A program made the translations under genes and the position numbers. DNA of 64,000 bases from Deltaproteobacteria bacterium (GTDB lineage Bacteria; Desulfobacterota; Binatia; UBA1149; CAYXZP01). Below, piece by piece: positions 4,807 through 56,653 of the stretch; position 1 is the stretch's first letter, and the number at the start of each line of letters is the position of its first letter. The DNA lies in the NCBI GenBank assembly GCA_046583365.1, contig JAYGCL010000077.1:3179-67178 (forward strand), in the 5' to 3' direction. The notes under the pieces were generated by a model. It saw nothing but the letters and a program-made list of their open reading frames with translations. It was not told the DNA's origin and searched no databases.

Positions 4807-4854
4807 GGCTCATCTCACCCGGCCAACGGCGGCTCATCTCACCCGGCCAACGGC
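4807..4854. repeat. perfect 24-bp tandem duplication (2 copies) spanning the glpK stop codon
   Basis: GGCTCATCTCACCCGGCCAACGGC occurs at 4807..4830 and again at 4831..4854. The second copy encodes the last glpK codons (AVGRVR) plus the stop. Confidence 0.95.
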
Positions 4855-6315
4855 CTCTTGCCACCCCCGATAGAGGCGGGCCCGCTGGGACGGCTTCATC
4901 GACGGCCTGAACACACGGTCGGCCTGGCGGGCCTTTTCCACATCCCCTGCCCCCTTGAAGATGCCGGCACCAAGGCCGGCCAGCAACGCCGCCCCCACGG
5001 CCGTGGTCTCTACAACACGGGGGCGGTCTACGCCCACGCCGAGGATGTCGGCCTGGAACTGCATGAGAAAATCGTTGGCCGCGGCTCCCCCGTCCACCCG
5101 CAATAACCGCAGACGGCGCCCCGCATCGGCCGACATCGCCTCGACCACATCACGGGTCTGGTAGGCCAGGGATTCCAGCGTGGCGCGAATCACGTGGTCG
5201 GCCGTAACCCCCTGGGTAAGCCCGACCAGGGCACCACGGGCCTCGGCATCCCAATAAGGCGCACCCAGGCCGGCAAAGGCCGGCACCAGGTAAACGCCCA
5301 GTGTGGACTCCACACGGCGGGCCGCAGCCTGGCTGTCGGCGGCCTTTTTTATCAGCCCCAGTCCGTCGCGCAGCCACTGCACCGCCGCGCCGGCAATAAA
5401 GATAGAGCCCTCCAGGGCGTAGGCCGGGCCACCGTCGGCCGCACAGGCCATAGTGGTGATAAGATGGTTTTTTGAGACCACCGGCCGGTCGCCGGTGAAC
5501 ATGAGTATGAAACAACCGGTCCCGTAGGTGTTCTTCACCATCCCGGGCCGAAAGCAGCCCTGCCCGAACAGGGCGGCCTGTTGGTCACCGGCCACTCCGG
5601 TTATGGGAATCGAGCCCTTGCCGAGCAGGCCCGCGGCAGTCGCACCGAAACTGCCGGCCGAGGGCCGGACTTCGGGAAGAACCTCGGGGGGAATTCCCAG
5701 GGTCTCGCACAGAGACTTGTCCCACCGGCGCGAACGGATGTTGAAAAGCATGGTCCGCGAAGCGTTGGTGTAGTCGGTGGCGTGGACCTTGCCGCCGCTG
5801 AGTTTCCAGATCAGCCAACTGTCGATGGTGCCAAAGGCCAGTTGGCCGCGGACGGCTTTGGCACGGGCGCCACGGACGTTATCGAGCAGCCAGGCCAGCT
5901 TGGTGGCGGAAAAGTAAGGGTCTATTACCAGACCGGTCTTGCGGCGTACGGCGGCCGTAAGACCGGCCGACTTAAGCTTCTGGCAATGGGCGGCCGTGCG
6001 ACGGTCCTGCCACACAATGGCGCGGTGCAAAGGACGGCCGCTTTTGCGGTCCCACAACACGGTAGTCTCGCGTTGGTTGGTAATACCGATGGCCGCCAGG
6101 TCTGCGGGCCGGATACCCGCATTGCGGCAGGCCTTGGCAATGAGCGAGTACGTCACGCGCCAGATCTCTTCGGCGTCGTGCTCAACCCAGGCCGGCTTGG
6201 GGTAGAACTGTTTGAACTCCGAATAGGCACGGCCCAGGACACGGCCGCGCTGGTCGAAAACCATAACTGTAGAACCGGTGGTGCCCTGGTCGAGGGCGAG
6301 AATGTAGCTGGCCAT
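4834..6315 (-). CDS. glpK: glycerol kinase
   Basis: [21 protein letters not shown]... with a full FGGY-kinase body. The start is chosen at the Met at 6315 (residue 51 of the track ORF), which overlaps the upstream gene stop (ATGA-type junction). Confidence 0.93.
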
Positions 6316-7370
6316 CAGCCGGTCACCAACGAACGCCGCTCGCCGAGGAGTTCCCCCAGCAAGGCCTGCATGCGCACGCGCAGGGCATCGCTCAGCCCGT
6401 CTACATTGGCATTGCCCTCTTCCACATCCACGTACTCGACCGTGGCACCGAGCCGCAGACGCCATTTAAGCGGCAGTGGCAGCAACCCGAAAATACCCAA
6501 CAGGGGAAAGACCGGGGTCAGGGGAAAACCGGCTGCATGTCCGAGAACGGGATAGCTCTCCTCGCTGCCGACCACGGCACCGGGAACAATACTTGCCCCG
6601 GCCTCTATGGCCGCCCCTATAAGGGCGGCGTCGTCAAAACGTTCGAGCCGGTAGCGGCGTTGATAGGTCTTGGCCAGGGCCGCACGGCCTTCGGGAAACC
6701 CCAGCACCACCGCGCCACGGGACAAAAGCTCAGCCGCATTCTCCGGCGTGGCCGCAACCAGACCGGCCCTGTGAAGAAAATCGCCAACCACGGGAAGTTC
6801 AAACACTCCCGCATCCCACAGGGCGTAGACACGGCGCTGCCCGCAGCGGCCCCCGGCCATGTGAGCCCACAACACCAGGGCCTCTACCGGCAACGGCCAG
6901 GCACTACGGTTGAGCAACACCAGCACCCCTCCGTGTTCGGGAAAGCGGGCCGAACGGCTTTCGTCCAGGCCCAGCCAGGCCCGCGCAACCGGCCTAAGGA
7001 TGTCGGCCAGCGCCGAGGACAGGTGCTCGTCCATGCCAAGGTCGTCGGTGGGGGCGGCAGCAAAACGCGAGGCTCTTGCCGCGATGAAGTTTTGCGGTTC
7101 GCGTAAACCGCGGGCAAGGCCGCTGCCGGCCATCCACAACTCGCGGCCGAGGTCGAGGACAAACTCTTCGAGCGGGCCGCGGGCCTGGGCCGGCCTCTCA
7201 AGCTCGCGGGCAACGCGGCCCTCGAGGTCTTCGAGGCGTTTTAAGAATATGTCCAGGGGATGGGCGGGGCCGGGGGAGGCGGCCGCCTTCGGTTCCTTGC
7301 CAACCGCCTCCGGCTGCGTGTCAACCACCCGCACGTTGCGGATTGTTAGCGCTGGCCGGGGCAATTGCAA
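6315..7370 (-). CDS. LPLAT/PlsC-superfamily acyltransferase-like protein with a degenerate HX4D box
   Basis: 351-aa ORF. The FPEGR block and overall acyltransferase-like layout are present, but the expected NHxSxxD box reads NRSAWPLP. The N-terminal ~110 aa has no recognisable domain. Confidence 0.5.
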
Positions 7371-7400
7371 CGAACCCGCCCCCGTCTAATAACGCCCGAT

Positions 7401-8267
7401 ATGCCCAGCACTTCCCCCCGCATTGTTTTCGTCACCGGCAAGGGCGGCGTGGGCAAATCCTACGTCGCCCGCCTGCTTGCCCACAGTCAGGCCGAGGCCG
7501 GCCGCCGGGTGGCCCTGCTCAACTGCGATGGCCGGCCGGCGGCGGCATCCGCACAGGGACAAACCAGCAAGGCCGCCTACGGCGGAGTAGACATCGTCGA
7601 TTTCGACGAAGGCCGGGCCCTGGCGGCCCTGGTAGGCCGGGTGATTCCCCTTGCCTTCGTGGCCCGGCGCCTGCTCAGCAGCCGTACCTTCGCCGCCGTG
7701 GCCGCGGCGGCCCCGGGCATAGCCGACCTGGCCCTGCTGTGGACCATCGCCGGGCTGGCCGACGGTAGGACCGGGGTCTACGACCTGGTCGTTGTCGATG
7801 GCCCGGCCTCGGGACAAGCCTTAAAGGTAGTTGGCGCCCCACGGGCCACGACCGGTCTTGGCCTGTTTGGACGGATGGACTCTCTGGCCCGGGACCTCGA
7901 AGAGATGCTCGGCGATGCCCAACGCTTTCGCGCCCTGGTCGTAACCACGGCCGAAGAGCTGGCGGTGCTCGAAACACAGGTCCTGGTCGATGGCCTTGCA
8001 GAGCGCGGCGTAGATGTGGCGGCAGTCGTGGCCAACGCCGTCTGGCCCCGTCACTGCAACCGGGAGCAGGAGGATTGGCTCACAAAAAACCCCTCTTCCT
8101 ACGACTCTGTCCACTACCTGTCGGTAAGGCGCGAGCAACTCAGGGCCCTGGCCGCCCTCACTGGTCCCCGCCCCCCCTTTGTCGTTGCCTACCGTTTTGA
8201 CAGTGGCACCGACGACACGGATGCGGCCCGCGCTCTGGCCGCGCATCTGGCCGAGGCCTGGACGTGA
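7401..8267 (+). CDS. ArsA/Get3-like P-loop ATPase (first of pair)
   Basis: Deviant Walker A IVFVTGKGGVGKSYVA. The DLVVVDGPASG block is typical of ArsA-related ATPases. The start is taken at the Met at 7401; the track ORF starts at 7365. Confidence 0.75.
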   Translation: MPSTSPRIVFVTGKGGVGKSYVARLLAHSQAEAGRRVALLNCDGRPAAASAQGQTSKAAYGGVDIVDFDEGRALAALVGRVIPLAFVARRLLSSRTFAAVAAAAPGIADLALLWTIAGLADGRTGVYDLVVVDGPASGQALKVVGAPRATTGLGLFGRMDSLARDLEEMLGDAQRFRALVVTTAEELAVLETQVLVDGLAERGVDVAAVVANAVWPRHCNREQEDWLTKNPSSYDSVHYLSVRREQLRALAALTGPRPPFVVAYRFDSGTDDTDAARALAAHLAEAWT

Positions 8268-9382
8268 GAGCAGAGACACTGGATAGCCTCACCGACGGAC
8301 GACGCCTGCTGGTATTCGTTGGCGAGGGTGGGGTGGGCAAAACCTCAATGGCGGCGGCCACGGCCCTTGCCGCCGCCGTGGCCGGCCGACACGTAGCCGT
8401 ACTCACCATCGACCCGGCCCCCCGTCTCTGTGATGCCCTCGGCATCGACACCATCGACGGCAGGCCGCAAAACGTAAGCCTGGGCAGCAGGCGCGCCCAG
8501 GCCGGCGGCTCTCTGGTAGCCATGAGGCTGGACACCAAGGGCACCTTCGACGCCATGGTCGAAGAGTTGGCCCCCGACCCCGTAACCGCCGCCCGTCTGC
8601 TGGCCAACCCCGTCTACCAGGCCATCTCCGACCGCCTGGGCGGCTCCGAGGGGTATGTGGCCTTCCAGCGTCTTTGGGAACTGGCCCGCCGCCGCAGCTA
8701 CGACCTTATCGTCGTAGACACGCCGGCGGCGGCAAACCTGCAAACACTGATGTCGGCACCGCTGCGGCTATCGGCCCTGATGGATAGCCGGGCCGCCGAA
8801 ATCCTCGCCGACCCGGCCAGGATCCTGATGCGCGCGGGCTCGAGTCTGGCCCGCACCACCGCAGCCATAGCCCTGGGCATCCTCGAACGTGTGGCCGGGG
8901 CCGGCCTGCGCGGCCAGGTGGCGGACTTCATCGCGGGCTTTGAACCGCTGCTCAATGCTTTGAACTCAAGGGCCGCAGAAGTGAACGACATGCTCGCACA
9001 GGGCTCTTTCGTAGTGGTTCTCAGCTTGCACGCCGACACCATGAATCTATCGTGTACCTTCTGCCGCGAACTGGCAGAGGCCGGCATGACGGTCACCTCG
9101 GTGGTGGCCAACCGTGTCATCCCGGCCTCAGGCCAGGACCCCGAACAAACATTAGCCCCGCTCGTCGACGACGCACCCACGGGTACGCTTGAGGCCGTGC
9201 AGAAGATGGAGACCGACCTCGGCCGCCTGCGTTCAAGCCAGACCGCGGTCATGGAAGAACTTACAAAGCGCATAGCCGGCACCACCGTGCTGACGGCTCC
9301 GGCGGCCAGAACAGGCATCGGTGGACTCGACGACCTCGAGACCCTGGCCGCAAGCCTCCAGCAGGTCGTAAGCGCCGCTTAG
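8264..9382 (+). CDS. ArsA/Get3-like P-loop ATPase (second of pair)
   Basis: LLVFVGEGGVGKTSMAAA P-loop, LTIDPAPRL, DLIVVDTPAAAN. 4-nt overlap with the preceding ATPase gene. Confidence 0.75.
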   Translation: MRAETLDSLTDGRRLLVFVGEGGVGKTSMAAATALAAAVAGRHVAVLTIDPAPRLCDALGIDTIDGRPQNVSLGSRRAQAGGSLVAMRLDTKGTFDAMVEELAPDPVTAARLLANPVYQAISDRLGGSEGYVAFQRLWELARRRSYDLIVVDTPAAANLQTLMSAPLRLSALMDSRAAEILADPARILMRAGSSLARTTAAIALGILERVAGAGLRGQVADFIAGFEPLLNALNSRAAEVNDMLAQGSFVVVLSLHADTMNLSCTFCRELAEAGMTVTSVVANRVIPASGQDPEQTLAPLVDDAPTGTLEAVQKMETDLGRLRSSQTAVMEELTKRIAGTTVLTAPAARTGIGGLDDLETLAASLQQVVSAA

Positions 9383-10309: not shown

Positions 10310-10698
10310 GACTCCCGCTCGGCCACGGCCTCGGCCACGGCAATGCCGGCCGCATGCGATATCGACAGGTGAATACGCCCGGCCCCCATGGCGCGGGCAC
10401 GCTTGAGGGCCCGTCCACGAAGAACCACCGAGGGAAATCCAGAAGGCTCGCGTACAACCTCTATGTCCTGCCAGGCAAAGCCCCAGGGAGCCCCGCTGCC
10501 CAGGGCTTTCATGACAGCCTCCTTGGCGGCAAAGCGACCGGCAAAGCTCTCGGCCCGGCCGGCCCGCTGCCGGCAATACTCGCGCTCGCCCTCGGTAAAC
10601 ACGCGAATCCGGAAACGCTCCCCGGTTACGGGGTCGGCCAGAGCCCGGTCCATGCGGCTGACCTCGACGACATCTATGCCTATACCGAGGATGGCCAT
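10306..10698 (-). CDS. acpS: holo-[acyl-carrier-protein] synthase
   Basis: MAILGIGIDVVEVSRM...FAAKEAVMKALG. The start at the Met at 10698 coincides with the end of the upstream radical-SAM gene. Confidence 0.88.
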   Translation of the reverse strand: MAILGIGIDVVEVSRMDRALADPVTGERFRIRVFTEGEREYCRQRAGRAESFAGRFAAKEAVMKALGSGAPWGFAWQDIEVVREPSGFPSVVLRGRALKRARAMGAGRIHLSISHAAGIAVAEAVAERES

Positions 10699-12422
10699 CA
10701 GCAGGCCCCACAGCTGTGGCAGGTGGCCACATCGCAAGGCTCGGTCTCACGCTCGGCGATAGACCGGCGGCGTTCAAGCCAGAGGTAGTCACGGTCTATG
10801 TGGTGGTCGATGAAGTCCCAGGGAAACAGGGCATCGTGGGGGTACTCCTCGACCACAAAGGCATCGGGGTTGAGATCGACGGTTTCGTGCCGTCCCCTGC
10901 GCATTGCCTGGATTGGGGACCACCAGTCGGGACTGCGGGCCAGCACCTCTACTATCTCGGCCACACGGCGGTCGCCGCGCGACAGCAGGGTCTGAAGATA
11001 GGCCTCGCGGGGTGACTCGCTTTCCATCTCTACGTTGGCCAGCCGCCCCAGATGGCGGCGCAGCCAGGCCATCTTTTTGCGAGCCGTCGACACCGAGGCC
11101 ATAGCGTCCCACTGAAAGGGAGTCCAGGGCTTTGGCACGAAGGGATTTATCGAAACCTTTATCTTTCCCACCCGCCCGCGAGAACGACCGGCCCCAACCA
11201 TGCGGTCGCGGATACGCCCGGTAAGGTCACAGATACCTTCAAGGTCGCTCTCGTCCTCACCGGGCAGTGCGCACATGAAATACAGCTTGAGCGACTCGAC
11301 CCCATCCCCGACCATAAGGTCGGTGGCCCGCAGGATTTCCGCCTCGCTTAAGTTCTTGTTTATCACCCTGCGCATACGCTCGGAGCCGGCCTCGGGGGCT
11401 ATGGTGACCTGGCGGGTACCACCGGCCGCCACCGCCTTTGCCAGGCGCGGGCTTATCATGTCGGCCTTGAGTGAGGATGGGGAAACCCGGCCCCCGGCCT
11501 CGGCCACAGCCGCACAGGTAGAGGCCACGCCGGGATGGCTGGCCATTTCGGCACCCACCAGACCGATCTTGGAACTCTCGGCCAGGCCGGCCAGGGCATC
11601 GCGGGTAAGCCCTTCGGCGCTGCGATGGCGTACCGGCCGGTACATGAAACCGGCCGCACAAAAACGACAGCCCCACTCGCAACCACGGCTGGCCTCGACA
11701 AGGTACTGGTCACCGAAAACCGCCTCCGGGCTTACTACCGCGGTGTGCACCGGGTAGCGGTCTAGGTCGCTCAGGTAGCGGCGGTTGACCCTGGCCGGCC
11801 CCTGCCCCAGCCGCCGGAACTCGGTGAGAGCGCCGTTGCCGGCATAAAACGGTTGGTAGAGGTCGGGGCGGTAGGCCCCTTCTACGGCCGACAGGCGCTC
11901 AAGCATGTCGCCGTGGCCCAGACCCGCCCAGCCCTGGGCACCCTCGAAAGCCTCGGGCAGCATCTCTTCGGCCTCACCGATGAGGAACAGGTCGAAGAAG
12001 GGGGCCACCGGCTCGGGGTTGAGAAAGGTCGCCGGCCCACCTGCCATCAGCAGGGGCCAGGCACGCGAGGAATCCTCGCGGTCGGCCCTACGCGCCGGAA
12101 TGCCGGACGCATCGAGCATGCGAACGATGTTGGGGTAGTCGCTTTCGAAAGAAAGCGAAAAAGCCAGGATATCAAAATCGCCCGGGCTGCGGCCCGACTC
12201 CAGTGTGGCCGGTGGCCGGCTCGGGTCGAGGAAGAGCCGTTCGCAGACAACCCCGGGAGTGGTCGCCAGCATGCGAAAGACCGCCTGGTAGCCGAGGTTG
12301 CCCATGGCCACCTCGTAGGTGTTGGGATAGGCCAGACAAACCGACACACTGCCGTGGGAATTGGGTGTAAAAAGGAACTTCTCGCCGCGCTTGTTCAAAC
12401 CAACTGGCGAGTATAGCCGCAC
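10698..12422 (-). CDS. B12-binding-domain radical SAM protein (uncharacterised family)
   Basis: CEWGCRFCAAG (CxxxCxxC) cluster motif, with N-terminal LAYPNTYEVAMGNLGYQ typical of this family. The start is uncertain: GTG 12422 is proposed because the track ORF start (12662) would overlap ftsZ and cross its terminator. Confidence 0.78.
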   Translation of the reverse strand: MRLYSPVGLNKRGEKFLFTPNSHGSVSVCLAYPNTYEVAMGNLGYQAVFRMLATTPGVVCERLFLDPSRPPATLESGRSPGDFDILAFSLSFESDYPNIVRMLDASGIPARRADREDSSRAWPLLMAGGPATFLNPEPVAPFFDLFLIGEAEEMLPEAFEGAQGWAGLGHGDMLERLSAVEGAYRPDLYQPFYAGNGALTEFRRLGQGPARVNRRYLSDLDRYPVHTAVVSPEAVFGDQYLVEASRGCEWGCRFCAAGFMYRPVRHRSAEGLTRDALAGLAESSKIGLVGAEMASHPGVASTCAAVAEAGGRVSPSSLKADMISPRLAKAVAAGGTRQVTIAPEAGSERMRRVINKNLSEAEILRATDLMVGDGVESLKLYFMCALPGEDESDLEGICDLTGRIRDRMVGAGRSRGRVGKIKVSINPFVPKPWTPFQWDAMASVSTARKKMAWLRRHLGRLANVEMESESPREAYLQTLLSRGDRRVAEIVEVLARSPDWWSPIQAMRRGRHETVDLNPDAFVVEEYPHDALFPWDFIDHHIDRDYLWLERRRSIAERETEPCDVATCHSCGAC

Positions 12423-12444
12423 ACGACCGTTACTCAAAAGCCAC

Positions 12445-12482
12445 AAAAAAAGGCGGCCCCCCGGAGGAGGACCGCCTTTTTT
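12445..12482 (-). terminator. Rho-independent (bidirectional-looking) terminator after ftsZ
   Basis: GC-rich hairpin 12452..12476 (GGCGGTCCTCC/GGGGGGCCGCC on the minus strand), flanked by A7 and T6 runs, about 30 nt after the ftsZ stop. Confidence 0.6.
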
Positions 12483-12513
12483 GCTGACCCACGGAGTTGT
12501 GGGCCGGTCTACC

Positions 12514-13725
12514 TCAGGAACGCATCCGCGAGGCCCGCTCGCGCCAGCGGCGTATGTAGGCAGGAATGTCCACGGAACCCTTCGAATCCGCGTCTGGAAC
12601 CTGCTCAAAGGCCAGCTCTTCCTGATCGATACCGCCAGCCATCGGATCGTCGATGGAATCATCCATCAACGCCACCCGGCGGGCCCGGGAACTACGCGCA
12701 GAGTCCATCGACACCACACGGTCATCGTCACGGCGGCCATCGCTTACGCGATCACCGAAACCGGTAGCGATCACGGTCACGCGTACTTCGTCTTCGAGGT
12801 CCTCGTTGTGAACCAGACCAACGATGATGTTGGCATCGTCGTGGGCCTGATCCTGTATGAGCTCGACCGCCTCGTTCATTTCCTGGATACCGAAGTCCTT
12901 GCATGCGGTTATGTTGACCAGCACGCCGCGGGCGCCTCCGATTGAGACGTCTTCGAGAAGCGGACTGGATATCGCCGACATCGCCGCATCCACGGCTCGG
13001 CTGTCGCCGCTGCCGAACCCGGCTCCCATCATCGCCATGCCCATCTCGGCCATGATCGTACGTACGTCGGCAAAGTCGACGTTGATCAGACCCGGCTGGG
13101 TGATGATTTCCGAAATGCCGCGAACGGCGTGGAGCAGAACGTCGTCGGCCTCTTCAAAGGCGTCCATGGCCGTAGTCGTGCGCCCCGATACCTCGATCAA
13201 ACGCTGATTGGGTATGACGATGAGCGTATCGACGGCCGCGCGCAGTTCGTGGATGCCCTCTTCGGCCACACGACAACGCTTACGCCCCTCGAAGGAAAAA
13301 GGCTTTGTCACCACCCCAACAGTCAGAGCGCCAAGGTCTTTTGCAATACGGGCAATAACCGGGGCACCGCCGGTGCCGGTACCGCCGCCCATGCCGGCCG
13401 TCACAAACACCATGTCGGAATCAACCAACTCTTCCCGAATCATCTCTTCCTGCTCAAGAGCGGCCTTACGGCCGATATCGGGGTTGGCCCCGGCGCCCAG
13501 CCCTTTGGTGAGCTTGTCGCCGAGCTGTATCTTTGTAGGCGCGACGTTGACGGACAGGGCCTGGGAGTCCGTGTTGGCCGCGACAAAATCGACGCCGTCC
13601 AGGTCGGCACGGATCATCGTACTGACAGCGTTTCCACCACCACCACCGACACCAACTACTACTATGCGGGCGCTATCTTCGCCCCGGTTTACCAGTTCAA
13701 TCATCTCCACACCTCCTCCACACAA
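12514..13725 (-). CDS. ftsZ: cell division protein FtsZ
   Basis: [22 protein letters not shown] tubulin signature, C-terminal DIPAYIRR peptide. Alternative start at Met 13704. Confidence 0.97.
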
Positions 13726-39657: not shown

Positions 39658-40608
39658 GTGCGCTTCCTGTATGTGATGGACCCCATCGAAGGGGTCGACA
39701 TAACAAAGGACACCTCTTTCCTCTTCCTCACCGAGAGCCAGCGACGGGGTCACGAGAATTTCTACTGCCACACCCGTGACCTGAGCGTGGTAGAGGCGCA
39801 AGTGCGGGCTCGCTCGGCACCGCTTCGGGTGCGCCCCGTCCAGGGCGAGCACTACGAGATCGGCCCCTACCAAAGCCGCGGCGCGGAAGAGTTTGATTGC
39901 GTGTTAATGCGCAAGGATCCGCCCTTTGACACCGACTTTTTCTTTGCAACCCACCTGCTGAGCCTCATCGACCCGGCCTCAACCCTGGTCTTCAACCACG
40001 CCCGGGGATTGCGAGAGGCCAGCGAGAAACTGTTTATCCTGCGCTTCCCCGATCTCATCGCCGAGACCATAGTGAGCGCGGCCACAGACGAGATCTTGTC
40101 GTTTCGTCAACAAGTGGGCGGTGACGTAGTTGTAAAGCCGCTTGACGGTTGCGGCGGCATGGGGATTTTCCGCATCGCACCGGGGGACCTCAATACCCAC
40201 TCGATCATTGAGACGGTAACGGCCCGGGGACAACGGCCGGCAATGGTGCAGCGTTTCCTGCCCGAGTCGCGCAACGGCGACAAGAGGCTCATCTACATTG
40301 ACGGCCGTGCCGTCGGCTGCATGACGAGAATACCAAAGAGCGACGACCTGCGCAGCAACATCCACGTGGGCGGCGACTGCGTGGCCTCGGACATCAACCG
40401 CCGCGACGAAGAGATTTGCCGCCGCCTGGCCCCCACCCTGGACGGTCTGGGCATCTACTTTGCCGGCCTCGATATAATCGGCGGCTACCTGACCGAGGTC
40501 AACGTAACCAGCCCCACTGGCGTTCAAGAGGTAAACCGGCTAAGTGGCACCAAGTTGGAGGCCGAGGTCATAGACCTGGTTGAACAACGCTGCCAGGAGT
40601 TAAAATGA
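39658..40608 (+). CDS. gshB: glutathione synthetase (prokaryotic ATP-grasp type)
   Basis: MRFLYVMDPIEGVDITKDTSF..., VVKPLDGCGGMGIF, GDKRLIYIDG, LTEVNVTSPTG. Confidence 0.92.
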   Translation: MRFLYVMDPIEGVDITKDTSFLFLTESQRRGHENFYCHTRDLSVVEAQVRARSAPLRVRPVQGEHYEIGPYQSRGAEEFDCVLMRKDPPFDTDFFFATHLLSLIDPASTLVFNHARGLREASEKLFILRFPDLIAETIVSAATDEILSFRQQVGGDVVVKPLDGCGGMGIFRIAPGDLNTHSIIETVTARGQRPAMVQRFLPESRNGDKRLIYIDGRAVGCMTRIPKSDDLRSNIHVGGDCVASDINRRDEEICRRLAPTLDGLGIYFAGLDIIGGYLTEVNVTSPTGVQEVNRLSGTKLEAEVIDLVEQRCQELK

Positions 40609-41576
40609 AAAAACCCACGCTCGCCCTGACCAGTGCCATCGGCGTCCTTGCCTTACTGTGCCTGGGTGCGGCACCGACAGACAAGGCTCCCGAGCAGAGG
40701 CGTTTTCTGTTCACCTACAATCTGGTTCTGCACCCCCCCCAGGACGCGACCAGGATTGAGGCCTGGATCCCCGTGCCCAGCAACATCCCGGGCCAGAGCA
40801 TCGGCAAGGTTACCTTTGAGACCTCGGCCGACTACCGCTTCACCTCCGAACCGGCCTATGGAAACCACATGGTACACCTGGTGGTAGAGGGGCCGGCCGC
40901 CGGGCCCATAGAAGCCTCCATGACGGTGGAAGTCACCCGCCACGAGTACCGTGGAACAAACAGCGGCCAACCCCACCCACGCTACCTTATGGCAAACAAG
41001 CTGGTCCCCACCGACGGTCTGGTAGCCCGCCTGTCTACCCAGACCATAGAGAAGGCCGCAGCCACGACCGACATGGAAAAGGCCAGGGCCATCTACGAGT
41101 ACGTTACCCGCACGGTAAGCTACGATAAGTCGGGCACCGGTTGGGGGCGCGGCGACGCCCTGTTTGCCTGTGATGCCAAGAAGGGCAACTGCACGGACTT
41201 TCACGCCCTCTTCATCGCCATGACCAGGGCGGCCGGAATTCCCGCACGCTTTGAAATCGGCTTCCCCTTAAAGGAGGAGCTCAGTGCAGGGACCGTGGGC
41301 GGGTACCACTGTTGGGCTGAATTCTACATAAAAGGCCGGGGCTGGATTCCGGTGGATTCGTCCGAGGCCCACAAGGACCCCACACGCCACGAGTACTACT
41401 TCGGAGCCCTCGACCCCCACCGTGTCGAGTTCACCAAGGGACGAGACCTGGTACTGAGCCCCCCGCAAAAGGGAGAGCCCCTTAACTACTTCGTCTACCC
41501 TTACATAGAGATTGACGGCAAGCCGCTGCAAGACCTGGACCGGGTCAAGCTTAAGTTCTCCTACAAAAACGTGTGA
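40605..41576 (+). CDS. secreted transglutaminase-like (cysteine protease fold) protein
   Basis: Signal peptide, and a KKGNCTDFHALFIAMTRAAGIPAR core with downstream H and D residues (HCWAEFY...VDSS). ATGA overlap with the gshB stop. Confidence 0.8.
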   Translation: MKKPTLALTSAIGVLALLCLGAAPTDKAPEQRRFLFTYNLVLHPPQDATRIEAWIPVPSNIPGQSIGKVTFETSADYRFTSEPAYGNHMVHLVVEGPAAGPIEASMTVEVTRHEYRGTNSGQPHPRYLMANKLVPTDGLVARLSTQTIEKAAATTDMEKARAIYEYVTRTVSYDKSGTGWGRGDALFACDAKKGNCTDFHALFIAMTRAAGIPARFEIGFPLKEELSAGTVGGYHCWAEFYIKGRGWIPVDSSEAHKDPTRHEYYFGALDPHRVEFTKGRDLVLSPPQKGEPLNYFVYPYIEIDGKPLQDLDRVKLKFSYKNV

Positions 41577-45583: not shown

Positions 45584-46243
45584 TTATTGGGGCTGGGGCA
45601 CGATACGCAGGTAGGGCTTGATGGTTTTCCAACCGCCGGGGAATCGCTTGGCCGCATCCTCGTCTGAAACCGCCGGAACGATGATCACATCCTCGCCCTG
45701 CTTCCAGTTGACCGGCGTGGCAACCTTGTGCTTGGCCGTCAGCTGAATGGAATCGAGTACCCGTAAAATCTCGTCGAAGTTGCGACCGGTGCTCATGGGG
45801 TAGGTAAGGATGAGTTTTATGAGCTTGTCGGGACCCACGATGAACACCGAGCGTATGGTAGCGTTATCGACCGCCGTACGTTCGCTGGCTTTGCCGGAGG
45901 CGTTGGGGTGGATCATGTCGTAGAGTTTGGAGACCACCAGGTCGCTGTCTCCGATCAAGGGATAGTTGAGGGCATGGCCCTGGGTTTCCTCGATATCGCC
46001 GGCCCACTTTTCATGATCGCTTACCGGATCGATGCTGAGACCGATTGCCTTGCAGTTGCGTTTGTCGAACTCGGGCTTGAGACCGGCCACATAGCCAAGC
46101 TCGGTGGTACAAACCGGGGTGAAATCCTTGGGGTGGGAGAACAGAATGGCCCAGCCATCGCCGATCCACTCGTGAAAATTGACGGTTCCCTCGGTTGTCT
46201 CGGCACTGAAATCCGGTGCCTCATCTCCTATACGTAAAGCCAT
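45584..46243 (-). CDS. 1-Cys peroxiredoxin (Prx6 type)
   Basis: WAILFSHPKDFTPVCTTELG, 219 aa. Confidence 0.92.
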   Translation of the reverse strand: MALRIGDEAPDFSAETTEGTVNFHEWIGDGWAILFSHPKDFTPVCTTELGYVAGLKPEFDKRNCKAIGLSIDPVSDHEKWAGDIEETQGHALNYPLIGDSDLVVSKLYDMIHPNASGKASERTAVDNATIRSVFIVGPDKLIKLILTYPMSTGRNFDEILRVLDSIQLTAKHKVATPVNWKQGEDVIIVPAVSDEDAAKRFPGGWKTIKPYLRIVPQPQ

Positions 46244-49063: not shown

Positions 49064-49945
49064 ATGCCGATATCTCCAACCAGTCAGTATACAAAAAAGA
49101 AACTTCAAGTAGACGGCCTCAATATGGCCTACGTAGAGGAAGGCCAGGGCGACCCCATCCTCTTTCTCCACGGCAACCCCACCTCTTCTTTCCTGTGGCG
49201 CAATGTTATGCCGCACGTACAAGGACGGGGCCGCTTGATAGCCCCCGACCTCATCGGCATGGGCGACTCGGACAAGCTCGCCGACAGCGGTCCCGACCGC
49301 TATCGCTTCGTCGAACACCGCGACTACCTCGACGGCCTGCTCGAGGCCCTCGACGTAAAAGAGCGGGTCATCCTGGTTCTCCACGACTGGGGCACGGCGT
49401 TGGGCTTTGACTGGGCCAACCGCCACCGCGACGCGGTCCGTGGCATTGCCTATATGGAAGGGCTTGTGGGTCCGTCCACCTGGGCCGGTTTTCCCGAAGG
49501 CCCGAAGGGGCTTTTCCAGTCCCTGCGCTCCGACAAAGGCGAGGCCATGGTGTTGGAGAAAAACTTCTTCGTCGAAAGGATGCTACCCGGCGCCATCATC
49601 CGCAACTTGAGCGAAGAAGAGATGAACGAATACCGCCGCCCCTTCGAACAACCGGGAGAGTCTCGCCGCCCCACCCTGACCTGGCCCCGGCAGATCCCCA
49701 TCGACGGGGAACCGGACGACGTAACTGCAATCGTCAAAGATTACGCGGCATGGCTTCCCGGCTCTGCCGTGCCCAAGCTGTTTGTAAACGCCGAGCCCGG
49801 TGTGCTCATAACGAACAAAGTGCGTGAGTTCTGCCGCAGTTGGAAAAACCAGAGCGAAGTAACGGTAGCGGGCTTGCACTTCTTACAGGAAGACTCCCCC
49901 GATGAAATAGGTATGGCCATTGCCGACTGGGTGGACGGCCTGTGA
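49064..49945 (+). CDS. haloalkane dehalogenase (alpha/beta hydrolase, HLD-II-like)
   Basis: [29 protein letters not shown] (nucleophile Asp-Trp), C-terminal [11 protein letters not shown]. Confidence 0.9.
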
Positions 49946-50409
49946 ACAGGATTGTTAAATTTTTTCTCAAATTCCTGGGTGAGATCGGCTTCTGGAAACT
50001 GTGGAGCAGGGGTCACATATTTCTCTACCGCCGCACCGGCGGACGCATCGGTAAGCAAATCGATGGCATGAGCCATCTGCTTCTGACAACCACCGGACGG
50101 CGTTCGGGACAGGCCCGCACGGTGGCGCTCAGCTACATGCCCGAAGGCCGCGACTACGTTATCGCCGCCTCCAACGGCGGCGCCGACCGGCCGCCGGCCT
50201 GGTGGCTGAACCTGCGCGCCAGGCCCACGGCCGACATTCAGATCGACGACCAGCGCGTGGCGGTAACGGCAAGAATGGTAGACCAGGACGAAAGGGCCCG
50301 GCTATGGCCGAAGCTCAAGGCGGCCAACCGCTATTACCCCTACCACGAGAGCAACACGGCACGGGAAATCCCCGTCATCGTACTCAGCCCCGCCCACGAG
50401 CAGGGCTAG
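49942..50409 (+). CDS. deazaflavin (F420H2)-dependent nitroreductase-family protein (DDN/DUF385)
   Basis: [20 protein letters not shown]...[17 protein letters not shown]...REIPVIVL. Confidence 0.85.
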
Positions 50410-50747
50410 CCAAGAACCGAAAGGTAGACCTCGGCGTTAAAGCCCACCAGTACGGTCTTGCCCACCTTGAGGCAGGGGGCTCGCAGGTTGCCGGTGGGGC
50501 CGAGCAGAGAATCCACCACCGCAGCCGGGGCCTTGCCCGCGGGTTTGAACTCTTCGACCTTCTTACCTTTGGCCACGATTACCCGGCTTGCCGCACGTAC
50601 CAGTGCGGCGGCTTCCTTGCGGCCCAGCTTTCTGGAGGCCGGGACGGTCTCGCGCGGCTGCAGGCCTTTGTCGTCCAGAAACCTGGACGATCGCGTACAC
50701 GAAGTTCAACCGTTGCGGTGGTAGTACCAGTCGGGGATCTTAGACAT
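50406..50747 (-). CDS. ArsC/Spx-family thioredoxin-fold protein with in-frame UGA (probable selenocysteine, UxxC motif)
   Basis: Manual translation gives MSKIPDWYYHRNG-[TGA 50708..50706]-TSCTRSSRFLDDKGL...[28 protein letters not shown], 113 codons in a single frame, with AAGGTG upstream. Absent from the ORF track because of the TGA. Confidence 0.7.
50671..50690 (-). promoter_or_regulatory. SECIS-like hairpin
   Basis: UCGUCCAG-GUUU-CUGGACGA is a perfect 8-bp stem that begins 15 nt after the UGA. Confidence 0.55.
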
Positions 50748-50841
50748 CGGGGCACCTTAACACGGCTGCCCCGTCGCCCAAGCCGGCATCGGGCCGGTTT
50801 GCCGCCACGCCGTAAAGGCGGCAAGGTGGCACTCTGCGTCG

Positions 50842-51588
50842 ATGAAAAAAATTATCGTCTGCCAGCACGTTGCCTACGAAATCCTCGGCACCCTCAACCC
50901 TCTCTTAAAACGGGCCGGCCTGCGTATTCGCTACGTCAACTTCGACCGTGAACCCGGCGCCCGTCCCGACCTGGACGGCTACCAGGGCCTGGTCGTTCTG
51001 GGCGGTCCCATGAGCGTCTACGACACCGACGGCCACCCCCACCTGGACACCGAGGTGGAGTTGGTGCGCGAGGCGATAAAACGCGACATCCCGGTGTTGG
51101 GTATCTGCCTGGGCGCCCAGATCATTGCCCGGGCCCTGGGGGCCCGGGTCTACCCCAATGCAGAAAAAGAGATCGGCTGGTACCCCATCCAGGCTACCGA
51201 CCACGGTAGCGCCGACCCATTGATAGGCCACTTCGCCCGCAACGAACAGATCTTCCAGTGGCACGGCGATACTTTCGACATCCCCTCCGGCGCTGTGCAT
51301 CTGGCCAGCTCGCCTGGTTGTACAAACCAGGCATTTCGCTATGGGGACAAGGTGTACGCGTTGCAATTTCACCTGGAGGTGGACGAGGCCATGATAGAAC
51401 GCTGGCTGCGGGTGCCCCACCACGTGGCCGAGATTGCCGCACTGGACGGCAAAGTGGACCCTCAAACCATTCAACAGCAAACCCCGGGCAACATAGGCCG
51501 GCTCGAAGAACTCAGCCACTTAGCCTTTGGGGCCTTTGTCGACCTGTTCGGCCAACTCAAGAAACAGAGGACCCTGCCCTCAAGGTAG
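50842..51588 (+). CDS. class I glutamine amidotransferase-like protein
   Basis: VLGGPMSVYD, GICLGAQIIARALG (nucleophile Cys), FQWHGDTF. Confidence 0.85.
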   Translation: MKKIIVCQHVAYEILGTLNPLLKRAGLRIRYVNFDREPGARPDLDGYQGLVVLGGPMSVYDTDGHPHLDTEVELVREAIKRDIPVLGICLGAQIIARALGARVYPNAEKEIGWYPIQATDHGSADPLIGHFARNEQIFQWHGDTFDIPSGAVHLASSPGCTNQAFRYGDKVYALQFHLEVDEAMIERWLRVPHHVAEIAALDGKVDPQTIQQQTPGNIGRLEELSHLAFGAFVDLFGQLKKQRTLPSR

Positions 51589-51625
51589 CGCCGCCCAAAG
51601 AACCGAGAGAAAGGATAGAGCCGAT

Positions 51626-52969
51626 ATGTCAACGACAATCTCTTTGTGCAGCAGAATTTTAACCGCAGCCGGTCTCATCTGTCTGCTCATAACCCCGGCT
51701 CTGGCCGGTACCCCCGGCGGTGTCGAAGGAGCTCTGGAACGTGCCTCCCGCGCCATAGACAAAGATCCGGGCCTGGCCACGGAAACCAAAGAGGCTCTCA
51801 AAGAACTGCTCAACGCCCTTGAAGAAGAACGCGGCCGAGCGGCTGCCCCTGCGGCCCACGCCTCCACACCGGCAACCACCGCTACTACCGCCACGGCGAC
51901 GGCGACCGTACTCGACCGTCTCGACGTCTACGGCGACTTTCGCTACCGCCATGAGACCAACGACACCCAGGGCTCTCCCACCCGCAACCGCGAGCGCATA
52001 CGCATGCGTCTGGGCGCCGACTATCGGCTGAACGACCAACTGAGCATCGGCGGCCGTGTATCAACGGGCAGCCGCACCGACCCCAACTCGCCGCATAACA
52101 CCCTGGGGGAGGGCTTCCACCGCTTCGACATCAACCTGGACCGGGCCTTTTTTGACTACCGTCCCAGTGGGGCACCGGGCCTGTGGCTGAAGGGCGGTAA
52201 GTTCGCCCACCCGTTCTGGAAAAACCCGGTCTATGGCGAGGTACTCTGGGACGGCGATGTACAACCCGAAGGCGGTGCGGTCGGCTACGGACTGGGAGGG
52301 CTGGGGATCCTCGACAGTCTCGATGTAACCATCGGAGAGTACATACTCGTCGAACAAGCCCTTGCAGATGAGGCCACGGCCTTTGTGGCCCAGTTGGCCG
52401 GCACGAAAAAACTGAGCGAGGTATGGAGTGCCGGCGCTGCCGTCGGCCTCTACCATTGGTCCAACCTCACCCCCGACGGCAACACTCTCCTGCTCGACGA
52501 CAATCAGGGTAACGCCACCATCGATGATGACAGCAATGACATAGCCGACCGTTTCTCTTCGCGCTTCGAGGTCATAAACCCGATAGCCGCACTCACATAC
52601 AGCGGCGGGCAGAGGCCGTTCACACTGGCCGGCGAGTACATCTACAACCGCAAGGCGGCCAGTGGCCGCGACTCGGGATGGGGTCTGGGGGCAGCGCTGG
52701 GCCGGGCCAGGGCGCCGGGGGACTGGCGGCTGTTCTACCAGTACTATGAACTCGACGAAGACGCCTTCTTCTCGGTGGTGGCCGGCGACGATACGTTACG
52801 AACAACCAACGCCCGCTCGCACATCTTCGGTCTGGATTACAAGGTGTCCGAACATTTCAAACCCAGACTGTGGGGCCTGGTCTCGCGACGGCTCGAACAG
52901 CTGTCGGGGGATACCGACCCGACGGCAAACGACACCCGGCTGAGGCTGGACTTGAACTTCAGCTTCTAA
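51626..52969 (+). CDS. putative outer-membrane beta-barrel porin
   Basis: Signal peptide MSTTISLCSRILTAAGLICLLITPALA, a helical segment plus a Thr/Ala-rich linker, alternating beta-strand pattern, and a C-terminal ...LDLNFSF aromatic terminus. Confidence 0.55.
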   Translation: MSTTISLCSRILTAAGLICLLITPALAGTPGGVEGALERASRAIDKDPGLATETKEALKELLNALEEERGRAAAPAAHASTPATTATTATATATVLDRLDVYGDFRYRHETNDTQGSPTRNRERIRMRLGADYRLNDQLSIGGRVSTGSRTDPNSPHNTLGEGFHRFDINLDRAFFDYRPSGAPGLWLKGGKFAHPFWKNPVYGEVLWDGDVQPEGGAVGYGLGGLGILDSLDVTIGEYILVEQALADEATAFVAQLAGTKKLSEVWSAGAAVGLYHWSNLTPDGNTLLLDDNQGNATIDDDSNDIADRFSSRFEVINPIAALTYSGGQRPFTLAGEYIYNRKAASGRDSGWGLGAALGRARAPGDWRLFYQYYELDEDAFFSVVAGDDTLRTTNARSHIFGLDYKVSEHFKPRLWGLVSRRLEQLSGDTDPTANDTRLRLDLNFSF

Positions 52970-54572: not shown

Positions 54573-55762
54573 ACCCCTCCAGGACGCGCGGCCACCAGTG
54601 CAGTCACCGCCTCGGTGATGCCATCAACCGACAAATGATACATGGGAAAAAGACGTTGAATGATCCGGCAGGTATGGCTGCCATTCCAGTAAGGCTGGTC
54701 CTCGGGGTTTATCCACACCACCCGTTCGAAGTGGTCAAGGATACGCTTAAACCACACCACCCCTTCGGTCTCGGTGGCCAGGTGTGGGGTTATGTGGCCA
54801 TAGGGCTCCAGAAGTTCGGCCGGGTGCATGGCAGCATCGCCCACAATCACGACTTTCCAGCGTCCGTCCAGACGGCGGAAAAGATCGCCGGTCGCAATGG
54901 CGTTTTCCTGGCGCAGACCTCCGGCCGTGTATACGTGGTCGTAGATGCAGTTGTGAAAGTAGTAAGCCTCCAGGGCCTTCAGTCCCCTCTCCTCGTGCAA
55001 TGCCGTCAACAGCCGGCTCACCGGTTCGTAGAAGGGTTGCATCGTTCCGCCAACGTCCATCAACAGGAGAAGACGTACGTTGTTGCGTCGCGGGGGCCGG
55101 AAAACCAGTTCTATCTCACCGGCATTGCGGCAGGTCTCGTCTATGGTCTCGTCCAGGTCCAACTCGCAGGCCAGACCGTCGCGGGTAAGCGTGCGCAGGC
55201 GCTTGAGCGCCACACGGATCTGACGCGTATCGATGGCCACATCGGTACGGTAGTCTTTGAAACGACGTTGGCCGGCCACCTTCATGGCCGAACGGTTGCG
55301 ACTCTGTCCGCCCACACGAATACCGGTGGGGTGGGTGCCGTTGTTGCCGAAAGGAGAGCGTCCGCCCGTACCCACCCAGCGGTCGCCGCCATCGTGGCGT
55401 TCGGTCTGCTCGGCCAGAGTTTCCAGGAACCTCTGCATGAGTTCATCCGAAGAAAGCCGTTGGAGAGCTTCCAGTTGTTCGGGGCTCAAGCGTTCAAAAT
55501 TTTTCGAATCCGACAGCCACTCCAACACCTCGTCCTCTATACCCAAAGACCCCTCCACGCCCTTGAACACACGCAAAAATACATGGTCAAAAGCGTCGTA
55601 GTAGGTTTCGCTCTTTATCAGACAGGCGCGGGCGAGATGGTAGAAGCGGCCGAGGCTGGAGCCGTGCAGGCCCTTACCAAGCGCCTCGTTGAGCGTCATC
55701 CATTCCTGGATGCCCACCGGAACGCCTTCGTCGCGAAGGCCGTAGAAGAGGTCGGTAAACAA
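54569..55762 (-). CDS. VWA-domain protein (CoxE/COG3825-like partner of a MoxR ATPase)
   Basis: N-terminus MFTDLFYGLRDEGVPVGIQEWMTLNEAL. The C-terminal VWA has LLLLMDVGGTM (MIDAS-like DxGxT). Confidence 0.75.
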   Translation of the reverse strand: MFTDLFYGLRDEGVPVGIQEWMTLNEALGKGLHGSSLGRFYHLARACLIKSETYYDAFDHVFLRVFKGVEGSLGIEDEVLEWLSDSKNFERLSPEQLEALQRLSSDELMQRFLETLAEQTERHDGGDRWVGTGGRSPFGNNGTHPTGIRVGGQSRNRSAMKVAGQRRFKDYRTDVAIDTRQIRVALKRLRTLTRDGLACELDLDETIDETCRNAGEIELVFRPPRRNNVRLLLLMDVGGTMQPFYEPVSRLLTALHEERGLKALEAYYFHNCIYDHVYTAGGLRQENAIATGDLFRRLDGRWKVVIVGDAAMHPAELLEPYGHITPHLATETEGVVWFKRILDHFERVVWINPEDQPYWNGSHTCRIIQRLFPMYHLSVDGITEAVTALVAARPGGV

Positions 55763-55771
55763 CGGTCTCGC

Positions 55772-56653
55772 CTATTGATTGTAGCGGGGTCCCAGGTCTT
55801 TCCAGCTGGAGGGATACTCGCCGCCCTGGCCGTCGTATCGCTGCAGGGCATCCAGATCCTGCTCTTTTTTGAGCAGAGAACCCACAAAGGGAATGTTGGC
55901 CTCAAGTTTTTCCATCGACACCCCGGCCTTGAGCAGCACGGCTATCCAGTCGATGAGTTCCGAGGTCGACGGTTTTTTGCGAAGCTCGTTCTGGGTACGC
56001 AGCCAGTAGAACTTTATGAGCACCTGGTCGAGTAGTTTCTCTTCCAGGTTGGGGTGGTGGACGGCAACGATTTTCTCCATTAACTCACGTTCGGGGAATT
56101 CGATGAAGTGGAAAATACAACGGCGCAGAAACGCATCGGGCAGTTCCTTTTCATTGTTCGAGGTAATCACCACCACCGGCCTTTCCCTGGCGGAAATCTC
56201 TTTCCCCGTCTCAAGGATGGCAAACTGCATGTTGTCGAGTTCGTGCAGAAGATCGTTGGGGAACTCCACATCGGCCTTGTCGATTTCGTCAATCAGCAAC
56301 ACGTGGCGGTGTTCGGCAGCGAACACGCGGCCCAAGGGGCCCAGCTTTATATAACGGTCGATATCGGACACGTCGCCGCTGCCGAAGCGGCTGTCGTTGA
56401 GCCTCTGTACGGTATCATAAACGTAGAGCCCGTCGGCGGCCCGCGAGGTGGACTTTATGTGCCAGGACTCCATCGGCAGGCCCAGCCCTTCGGCCACGTG
56501 ATGGGCCAGCAGGGTTTTGCCCGTACCCGGCTCGCCCTTTATGAGCAGCGGCCGCTGCAGGGCTACCGCACAGTTGACGGCATCGACCAGGGGCGCCGAG
56601 ACAATATAGCCGTCGGTGCCTTTGAAACTCTCAAAACCGTTATCTTCAGACAT
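55772..56653 (-). CDS. MoxR-like AAA+ ATPase
   Basis: LLIKGEPGTGKT (Walker A), VLLIDEIDKA (Walker B), ITSNNEKELPDAFLRRC. Confidence 0.88.
   Translation of the reverse strand: MSEDNGFESFKGTDGYIVSAPLVDAVNCAVALQRPLLIKGEPGTGKTLLAHHVAEGLGLPMESWHIKSTSRAADGLYVYDTVQRLNDSRFGSGDVSDIDRYIKLGPLGRVFAAEHRHVLLIDEIDKADVEFPNDLLHELDNMQFAILETGKEISARERPVVVITSNNEKELPDAFLRRCIFHFIEFPERELMEKIVAVHHPNLEEKLLDQVLIKFYWLRTQNELRKKPSTSELIDWIAVLLKAGVSMEKLEANIPFVGSLLKKEQDLDALQRYDGQGGEYPSSWKDLGPRYNQ

Follow-up and report, generated by a model that had tools for sequence, protein, structure and literature searches.

A very probable ArsC-like selenoprotein gene of the NF041106 family, truncated by standard gene calls, in the genome of an uncultured deltaproteobacterium

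The DNA considered here is a stretch of 64,000 nt from contig JAYGCL010000077.1 of an uncultured deltaproteobacterium (referred to below as the window), and the question it raises concerns some 340 nt between a gene for an F420H2-dependent quinone reductase and one for a class-I glutamine amidotransferase (GATase). The minus strand of this segment (50747..50406) can be read as one frame of 113 sense codons that is interrupted by a single TGA, and it has to be asked whether that TGA ends a gene, has broken one, or is the selenocysteine (Sec) codon of an intact one. From the sequence and its relatives we consider it very likely that the segment is a genuine and intact Sec-encoding gene of the NCBIfam family NF041106 (‘ArsC family (seleno)protein’, ArsC_rel_Se_1). 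The family is already known to contain selenoproteins, NCBI having a curated model for it and the catalogues of prokaryotic selenoproteins of 2022 and 2026 including it, and no new kind of system is involved. Deltaproteobacteria were reported to have ArsC-like selenoproteins as early as 2006 (PMC1794560), a 2008 survey of the Global Ocean Sampling (GOS) metagenome listed an ‘Arsenate reductase 2, cd03032, UxxC’ (PMC2398784), a 2022 review lists an ‘Arsenate reductase-like protein, COG1393, UxxC’ (PMC9312934), and a 2026 review includes the NF041106 family as a known selenoprotein under the name ‘Arsenate reductase-like protein, UxxC’ (PMC13188914). The value of the present analysis lies in corrective annotation, the gene being represented by a 56 aa fragment in assemblies and by N-terminally truncated or Trp-bearing relatives in the databases; since standard gene calls truncate it, proteome and selenoproteome censuses built on such calls miss it.

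By direct reading the frame starts with ATG at 50747 and ends with TAG at 50408..50406, and its sole in-frame interruption is the TGA at 50708..50706, which is codon 14; from the ATG it reads MSKIPDWYYHRNG-TGA-TSCTRSSRFLDDKGL and onwards. A Shine–Dalgarno-like sequence, AAGGTG, lies 5 nt upstream of the ATG (50753..50758, minus strand). The list of open reading frames (ORFs) for this region holds a 56 aa ORF with a GTG start (50406..50576), corresponding to the C-terminal half of the 113-codon frame, and otherwise only out-of-frame or antisense ORFs, as is typical for DNA of 62 mol% G+C. One of the latter, a 249 aa GTG ORF on the plus strand (50202..50951), is antisense to the entire selenoprotein gene and extends beyond it on either side into the adjacent genes; its translation contains much Arg, Pro and Gly, and it has the appearance of a spurious shadow ORF of high-G+C DNA rather than a gene. 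The initial annotation of this stretch had described a gap with no plausible listed gene, flanked by a deazaflavin reductase gene and a divergent amidotransferase gene, together with a 113-codon minus-strand frame with its single TGA and a hairpin of 8 bp with a GUUU loop 15 nt after the UGA. We reproduced all of these, the translation being identical. It had also anticipated that gene callers would truncate the gene, and this is borne out by a call of 56 aa in three independent assemblies and by lengths of about 90 aa in most database relatives.

The family assignment rests on protein searches that were run with the U at residue 14 replaced by C. With NF041106, for which the curated cutoff is 85 bits, the window protein scores 109.8 bits (E-value 9e-32), and the match extends over residues 6–108, which align with positions 2–107 of the 107 profile positions. 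It shares with the family this full-length match above the cutoff, the N-terminal UxxC motif, the alternation of TGA and Cys codons in a single column and a length of about 113 aa; we found no difference and regard it as an ordinary member. The complete coding sequence (50406..50747, minus strand) is further defined by orthologues that are colinear with it from end to end. A protein search recovered 1447 relatives at E≤1e-3, and most of the best 120 of these are only 79–100 aa long, with about 80 % coverage of the query, which fits gene calls that start after an in-frame TGA; a scan of metagenomes gave at least 594 loci. The window protein is 63–74 % identical to many metagenomic relatives, and the closest GTDB relative of the gene, found in a scan of genome contigs, is that of a Binatia metagenome-assembled genome (MAG), with 71 % identity.

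The position of the TGA was compared in a locus set consisting of nine GTDB genome loci, 80 metagenome loci and contigs that carry Cys forms; the motif could be placed in 87 of the loci, which represent at least six bacterial lineages. The codon in column 14 is TGA in 83 of these loci, TGC in three and TGT in one. In all nine genome loci this column has TGA, with W-Y-Y-x-R-x-G before it and T-x-C after it, and the nine loci span Binatia, Myxococcales, Pseudomonadales, other Gammaproteobacteria/Proteobacteria, Planctomycetales, Gemmataceae and one MAG labelled Enterobacteriaceae. The UGA (50706..50708) would thus encode the U of a redox motif U-T-S-C (residues 14–17), and the Cys at its other end (Cys17, codon +3, TGT at 50697..50699 in the window) is invariant in 83 of 83 Sec forms and is the probable resolving Cys. 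The databases hold few full-length relatives, and among them P0001, P0002, P0005, P0012 and P0015 have Cys at column 14, the full-length Cys orthologues being colinear with the window protein from residue 1. A search for Cys orthologues at the U position had been proposed as a check in the initial annotation, and they do exist, with Cys exactly in the U column (4 of the 87 loci).

The second line of evidence is a hairpin, UCGUCCAG-GUUU-CUGGACGA (50690..50671, minus strand), which has a perfect stem of 8 bp, starts 15 nt after the TGA and encodes S-S-R-F-L-D-D. Folded alone it has a free energy of −12.3 kcal/mol (z=−5.0), and none of 200 shuffled sequences is as stable. The consensus for a bacterial selenocysteine insertion sequence (SECIS), for which PMC13188914 gives the model of Zhang and Gladyshev, has an apical loop of 3–9 nt on an upper stem of 4–16 bp, a G at one or both of the first two loop positions with G or U usually next, a distance of 16–37 nt from the UGA to the apical loop, and a minimum free energy (MFE) of −7.5 kcal/mol or lower. 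With a loop of 4 nt that begins G-U, a stem of 8 bp, a UGA-to-loop distance of 23 nt and −12.3 kcal/mol, the window hairpin agrees with all four of four SECIS constraints. It has in common with bacterial elements of the Escherichia coli fdhF type that it is a stem–loop within the coding sequence, just 3′ of the UGA, and differs from them in being a simple perfect hairpin.

A TGA with this hairpin at the same spacing is seen again in 83 related loci. Because the stem encodes a conserved peptide (A/S-S-K/R-F-L-D-A/D in the family), three controls were run on the hairpin. Among 81 distinct Sec-form sequences 87.2 % of cells are paired in the proposed register, as opposed to 23–41 % in registers slid by 1–3 nt. 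Five of the eight stem pairs vary on both sides in these sequences, with two-sided changes such as GCG/GAC, GCA/GAT and GCC/GAG at the third pair and AAG/TTG versus AGG/CTG at the closing pair, and the covariation score of 0.127, against 0.058 in shuffles, is reached by none of 500 shuffled sets. When each peptide was kept fixed and its codons were redrawn from the family's own usage, at least seven of the eight pairs were formed in 10 % of the synonymous-codon shuffles versus 90 % of the Sec forms, and the mean MFE was −5.6 kcal/mol versus −10.9 kcal/mol observed; the perfect 8 bp stem of the window has a probability of about 0.009 under random synonymous codons. The first loop base, which is the third position of a Lys or Arg codon, is G in 81 of 83 Sec forms, with an entropy of only 0.19, and in the small sample of four Cys forms it is A in three and G in one. 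The SECIS geometry that had been claimed for this hairpin is therefore upheld by the published constraints and joined by conservation and covariation.

Some observations on the hairpin speak against a Sec-encoding gene. Part of the conservation of the hairpin is at the protein level, arising from the overlap with the conserved peptide ASKFLDA. The fixed register suits three Sec forms (L007, L009 and L077) badly: in L009, as in L008, a GUU-loop hairpin lies in a slightly shifted register, and L007 (from a Planctomycetales MAG) and L077 form only four of the eight pairs in the family register and have no obvious alternative hairpin in the 48 nt after the TGA. The SECIS of these last two, if there is any, must differ from that of the family. 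A perfect stem is also kept in the Cys form L090 (TGT), at nt 19–38 after the Cys codon. Finally, no SECIS or other RNA family of Rfam was found at the site, either at gathering thresholds over the whole window or at E≤10 over 50600..50800; Rfam contains, to our knowledge, no general bacterial SECIS model, and this null result therefore weighs little.

The Cys forms deserve a separate word. Three of the four have 2–3 mismatches in the fixed register, and all four (L090, L091, L093 and L097) keep a SECIS-like stem, the loop being AUUC or AUUU in place of GUUY in three of them. In these four Cys loci the stems look like fossil SECIS elements that persist after a recent reversion from Sec to Cys, with the loop G lost. 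We note that in the Sec and Cys variants of [NiFe] hydrogenases the loop G is likewise lost in the Cys forms (PMC13582414).

A conserved UGA followed by a hairpin could also be decoded as something other than Sec, with Cys, Trp or Gly inserted by a near-cognate or suppressor tRNA or with UGA serving as a sense codon. The genetic code of the window bears on this directly. Among its 58 long ORFs TGA is an ordinary stop and the commonest one (26 of 58), terminating glpK (4834..6465), gshB (39658..40608) and prfA among others; the code is therefore not reassigned and the recoding is local, as had been argued at the outset from gshB and glpK. That the codon occupies a redox Cys position for which Cys orthologues exist is moreover the classic signature of Sec/Cys exchange, and the fit of the following hairpin to every bacterial SECIS constraint points the same way. 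On the other side, a recent paper refers to tRNAs with other anticodons as mediating UGA recoding with a SECIS (PMC13582414), and three database proteins (P0013, P0079 and P0097) show Trp at column 14 of alignment A1, although the likeliest explanation of these entries is that another translation table was applied to the TGA. One of them, P0079, carries an extra C-terminal read-through tail of 27 aa. A further point, which tells against a Sec-encoding gene and in favour of other forms of read-through, is that no Sec machinery was found in the window: selA, selB and selD are absent from the 30 annotated ORFs of the 64 kb window, the only tRNAs in the window are for Met and Phe, with none for Sec, and no tRNA-Sec was found in 50 related loci. 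Weighing these points we regard read-through without Sec as very improbable. The features of this locus indicate that the source organism, an uncultured bacterium with 62 mol% G+C, very probably has the Sec-decoding trait.

The coding constraint on the two sides of the UGA bears on whether the gene is intact. The seven codons 5′ of the TGA (W-Y-Y-H-R-K/N-G) are conserved at the protein level in the 83 Sec forms, with nucleotide variation mainly at third positions; at codon positions one, two and three the entropies are 0.22, 0 and 1.03 for the Arg at −3 and 0.16, 0.09 and 1.52 for the Gly at −1. The upstream stretch is therefore translated, and in the same frame as the downstream one. These codons belong to the N-terminal segment of 13 codons (MSKIPDWYYHRNG, 50709..50747, minus strand) which encodes strand β1 and which standard gene calls drop. 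The TGA is also kept in three independent assemblies of the same organism, one of them identical over the gene and two (L095 and L096) with 6–7 differences, which when mapped on the codons by hand were read as 5–6 synonymous changes and one K94R. As the TGA is retained despite these other differences, a sequencing error or a fresh nonsense mutation is excluded. The gene is called as 56 aa in all three assemblies, and the locus and its neighbouring GATase gene were seen only on Logan contigs of 5–7 kb; the locus is present in the runs SRR27277814, ERR10542833 and ERR10542844. The frame is intact, and purifying selection acts on it both before and after the UGA.

These data leave very little room for a pseudogene, in which a Cys codon (TGC or TGT) would have become TGA by nonsense mutation or through a sequencing or assembly error and the hairpin would be incidental. 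Both Cys codons are indeed a single base away from TGA, automatic annotation reduces the locus to a remnant of 56 aa, and a search of the 64 kb window did not reveal the Sec machinery of this genome, but the same TGA recurs in 83 of 87 loci in distant lineages, it outlasts mostly synonymous change elsewhere in the gene among the independent assemblies, the coding constraint continues on both of its sides, and the loop G and the third-position bases of the stem are conserved beyond what the peptide requires. The further proposal that only the downstream part is a gene (the 56 aa GTG ORF at 50406..50576, or a product of about 90 aa), with the 13 codons and the TGA as a leader and the hairpin as a regulatory element or attenuator, matches the output of automatic callers but is scarcely credible, since its product would be without strand β1 and the first redox residue of the thioredoxin fold, the upstream W-Y-Y-H-R-K-G is protein-conserved and in frame, full-length Cys orthologues are colinear from residue 1 and NF041106 covers residues 6–108, and the starts chosen by callers vary between relatives (79–100 aa) as artefacts would.

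Taking the segment, then, as an intact Sec-encoding gene, its decoding may be expected to follow the established bacterial scheme, in which SelB carrying GTP and Sec-tRNA(Sec) acts together with a hairpin in the message (summarized in PMC9312934). The mRNA hairpin 15 nt 3′ of the UGA would act as a bacterial SECIS, its apical loop would bind SelB loaded with GTP and Sec-tRNA(Sec), and SelB would deliver the Sec-tRNA(Sec) when the UGA is in the ribosomal A site, so that translation would continue past the UGA rather than terminate. We infer Sec insertion and the SelB interaction from the features of the locus, and likewise the redox chemistry and the substrate considered below.

As to the kind of protein encoded, it had been placed at first in the ArsC/Spx/YffB group of the PF03960 type, with the TGA at the position of the first Cys of the N-terminal CxxC motif and an LRAP...VGF block as a family hallmark. 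A profile of the family matches solved structures over their full length, namely 2m46 (SACOL0876, a ‘putative arsenate reductase’; E-value 1.3e-5), Spx (1z3e, 3.7e-5; others about 4e-5) and YffB (1rw1, 3e-4). In these alignments Spx, 2m46 and YffB have the first Cys of their CxxC motif in the U column, and G-N-L-R-A-P...V-G-F-N-E falls on G-L-L-R-R-P...V-G-Y-N-E of Spx, so both of these suggestions stand. The most conserved block of the family, G-P-T-G-N-L-R-A-P (residues 83–91; 50475..50501, minus strand), has columns that are invariant in alignments A1 and A3 and matches the LLRRP (cis-Pro) loop of Spx.

The fold was examined in an AlphaFold model of P0001, a Cys orthologue with 63 % identity to the window protein; the model has a mean predicted local distance difference test score (pLDDT) of 93.6 and a predicted template modelling score (pTM) of 0.85. 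Its best neighbours in the Protein Data Bank (PDB) are Spx, SMU.1142c, a Bacteroides ‘ArsC family related protein’ and YffB, followed by glutaredoxin- and NrdH-like proteins, and the top matches (Spx, 3gkx and YffB) have probabilities of 0.99–1.0. A bona fide ArsC, 3f0i, ranks below Spx and YffB as a structural match (E-value 0.06). The model thus has a thioredoxin-like fold with the CxxC motif at the N-terminus of helix 1 and an R-x-P loop, and its closest structures lie within the ArsC/Spx/YffB superfamily. Its middle part is predicted to be α–β–β–α, with strands at residues 55–60 and 63–68. The middle subdomain of Spx and ArsC is all-helical.

Against a closer relationship stand the modest structural similarity of the model to its Spx and ArsC relatives (template modelling (TM) score only 0.5–0.56) and the results with PF03960 itself. 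The window protein has no match to PF03960 at E≤1 in a Pfam scan, only weak Glutaredoxin and DUF matches being found; 24 of 37 relatives do match it at E≤1, with a best E-value of 1.9e-4, but remain below threshold, and P0001, the sole relative reported in detail, scores 15.1 bits against a gathering threshold of 24 bits. The score with the Spx/MgsR model TIGR01617, whose cutoff is 75 bits, is 14.4 bits (E-value 0.033), and ArsC equivalog models, TIGR00014 included, are absent from the NCBIfam matches at E≤1. Membership in PF03960 was accordingly rejected at the family level, where the original assignment fails, and retained at the superfamily level, where the profile and structure matches and the sub-threshold matches of relatives sustain it. 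By profile and fold, NF041106 is a divergent branch of the ArsC/Spx/YffB thioredoxin-fold superfamily that lies outside the arsenate reductase and Spx families proper.

A comparison with the two nearest groups is instructive. With Spx, MgsR and YffB (PF03960, TIGR01617; structures 1z3e, 6gho and 1rw1) the protein shares the thioredoxin-like fold, the N-terminal CxxC at the start of helix 1, the L-R-x-P loop and the V-G-[FY]-N block, and these are the best profile and structural neighbours of NF041106, although identity is only 17–22 % and the middle part of the model departs from the helical subdomain of Spx and ArsC. NF041106 is also widespread in Gram-negative lineages, and evidence of RNA polymerase binding, as in Spx, was not found for it. 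With ArsC of the R773 type (TIGR00014) and the selenoprotein group ‘ArsC 1, UxxS’ it has in common the superfamily and a Sec or Cys nucleophile after Y-H-x-x-x, and ArsC 1 likewise has Sec forms; the motif of ArsC 1 is however UxxS rather than the UxxC of the window protein, ArsC is the weaker structural match, and no ars operon surrounds the window gene.

In all likelihood the protein is not an arsenate reductase of the classical kind, nor is it a regulator of the Spx type. With some reserve we favour the view that it functions as a thiol/selenol oxidoreductase distinct from both. The fold suggests that Sec14, at the N-terminus of helix α1 within U-T-S-C, would attack an oxidized substrate, that Cys17 would resolve it as a selenenylsulfide, and that a cellular thiol system would then reduce this bond. 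A more specific reading, on which the protein would be a selenoenzyme in its own right with a small and possibly anionic substrate, is a tentative and rather unlikely one; it is prompted by the invariant PASRKLGR/GPTGNLRAP surface next to the Sec, by the predicted α–β–β–α middle subdomain as opposed to the helical one of Spx and ArsC, and by the occurrence of the gene on its own and nearly always with Sec (83 of 87 loci), a predominance which suggests that the chemistry benefits from selenium. No member of the NF041106 family is known to have been characterized biochemically.

The genes around the locus offer little help in this respect. The convergent neighbour is the PF04075 F420H2-dependent quinone reductase gene (49942..50409, plus strand), and the TAG stops of the two genes overlap on opposite strands in a CTAG palindrome (50406..50409), which leaves no intergenic room for a terminator. 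The divergent neighbour is the class-I GATase gene (50842..51588, plus strand), and an alpha/beta hydrolase and short-chain dehydrogenases/reductases (SDRs) are also encoded nearby; arsR, arsB and acr3 are not among the neighbours. All-against-all clustering of the neighbours at 86 loci revealed no conserved partner, the recurrent ones being generic SDR, luciferase-like and alpha/beta-hydrolase genes that occur at no more than eight of the 86 loci and in variable positions. The gene stands alone, its context giving no functional clue, and operon-based functional inference was dropped, since only such generic families recur.

In the 94 nt divergent intergenic region between the selenoprotein and GATase genes there is an inverted repeat (50786..50837) with arms of 21 nt that are 71 % complementary, a spacer of 10 nt and a perfect 8 bp core (TTGCCGCC on the minus strand, GGCGGCAA on the plus strand), and this could be an operator or a 5′-UTR (untranslated region) hairpin. 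Scanned for promoters and terminators, the interval 50300..50950 showed nothing resembling a promoter and a single terminator-like site, a number that does not exceed chance. A scan of the whole window for other ORFs interrupted by a single TGA yielded no further credible selenoprotein candidate.

The window as a whole is mostly of a housekeeping character, with murA, prmC, prfA, glpK, the RNase P RNA gene, rsmE and gshB. A dcw cell-wall and division cluster is read, from position and N-terminal sequences, as occupying about 13.8–29.5 kb, and rpoD and dnaG are probably present as well, judging by the N-terminal sequences of their products; a search for the RpoD sequence of the window brought up no record of it. 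Two thiol-redox genes lie near the selenoprotein gene, although they are not conserved neighbours at other loci: one for a 1-Cys peroxiredoxin (AhpC-TSA and 1-cysPrx_C domains; 45584..46243, minus strand) at a distance of 4 kb, and gshB, for glutathione synthase (39658..40608, plus strand), at 10 kb. Two adjacent genes at 7365..9382 (plus strand) encode ATPases of the Get3/ArsA fold, for which the best NCBIfam matches, below threshold, are mycobacterial BagA and BagB; no ars operon surrounds them, and the ArsC-like gene is 41 kb away. A B12-binding radical SAM protein of 654 aa (10698..12662, minus strand) is related to TIGR03960, with 349 bits against a cutoff of 462. Two ORFs of high G+C content at third codon positions, one of 466 aa (54635..56035, plus strand) and one of 323 aa (40605..41576, plus strand), have no NCBIfam match at E≤1e-5. 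An ORF of 480 aa (51527..52969) likewise has no NCBIfam match, and its equivalent at locus L094 has a precomputed Pfam match to Porin_5.

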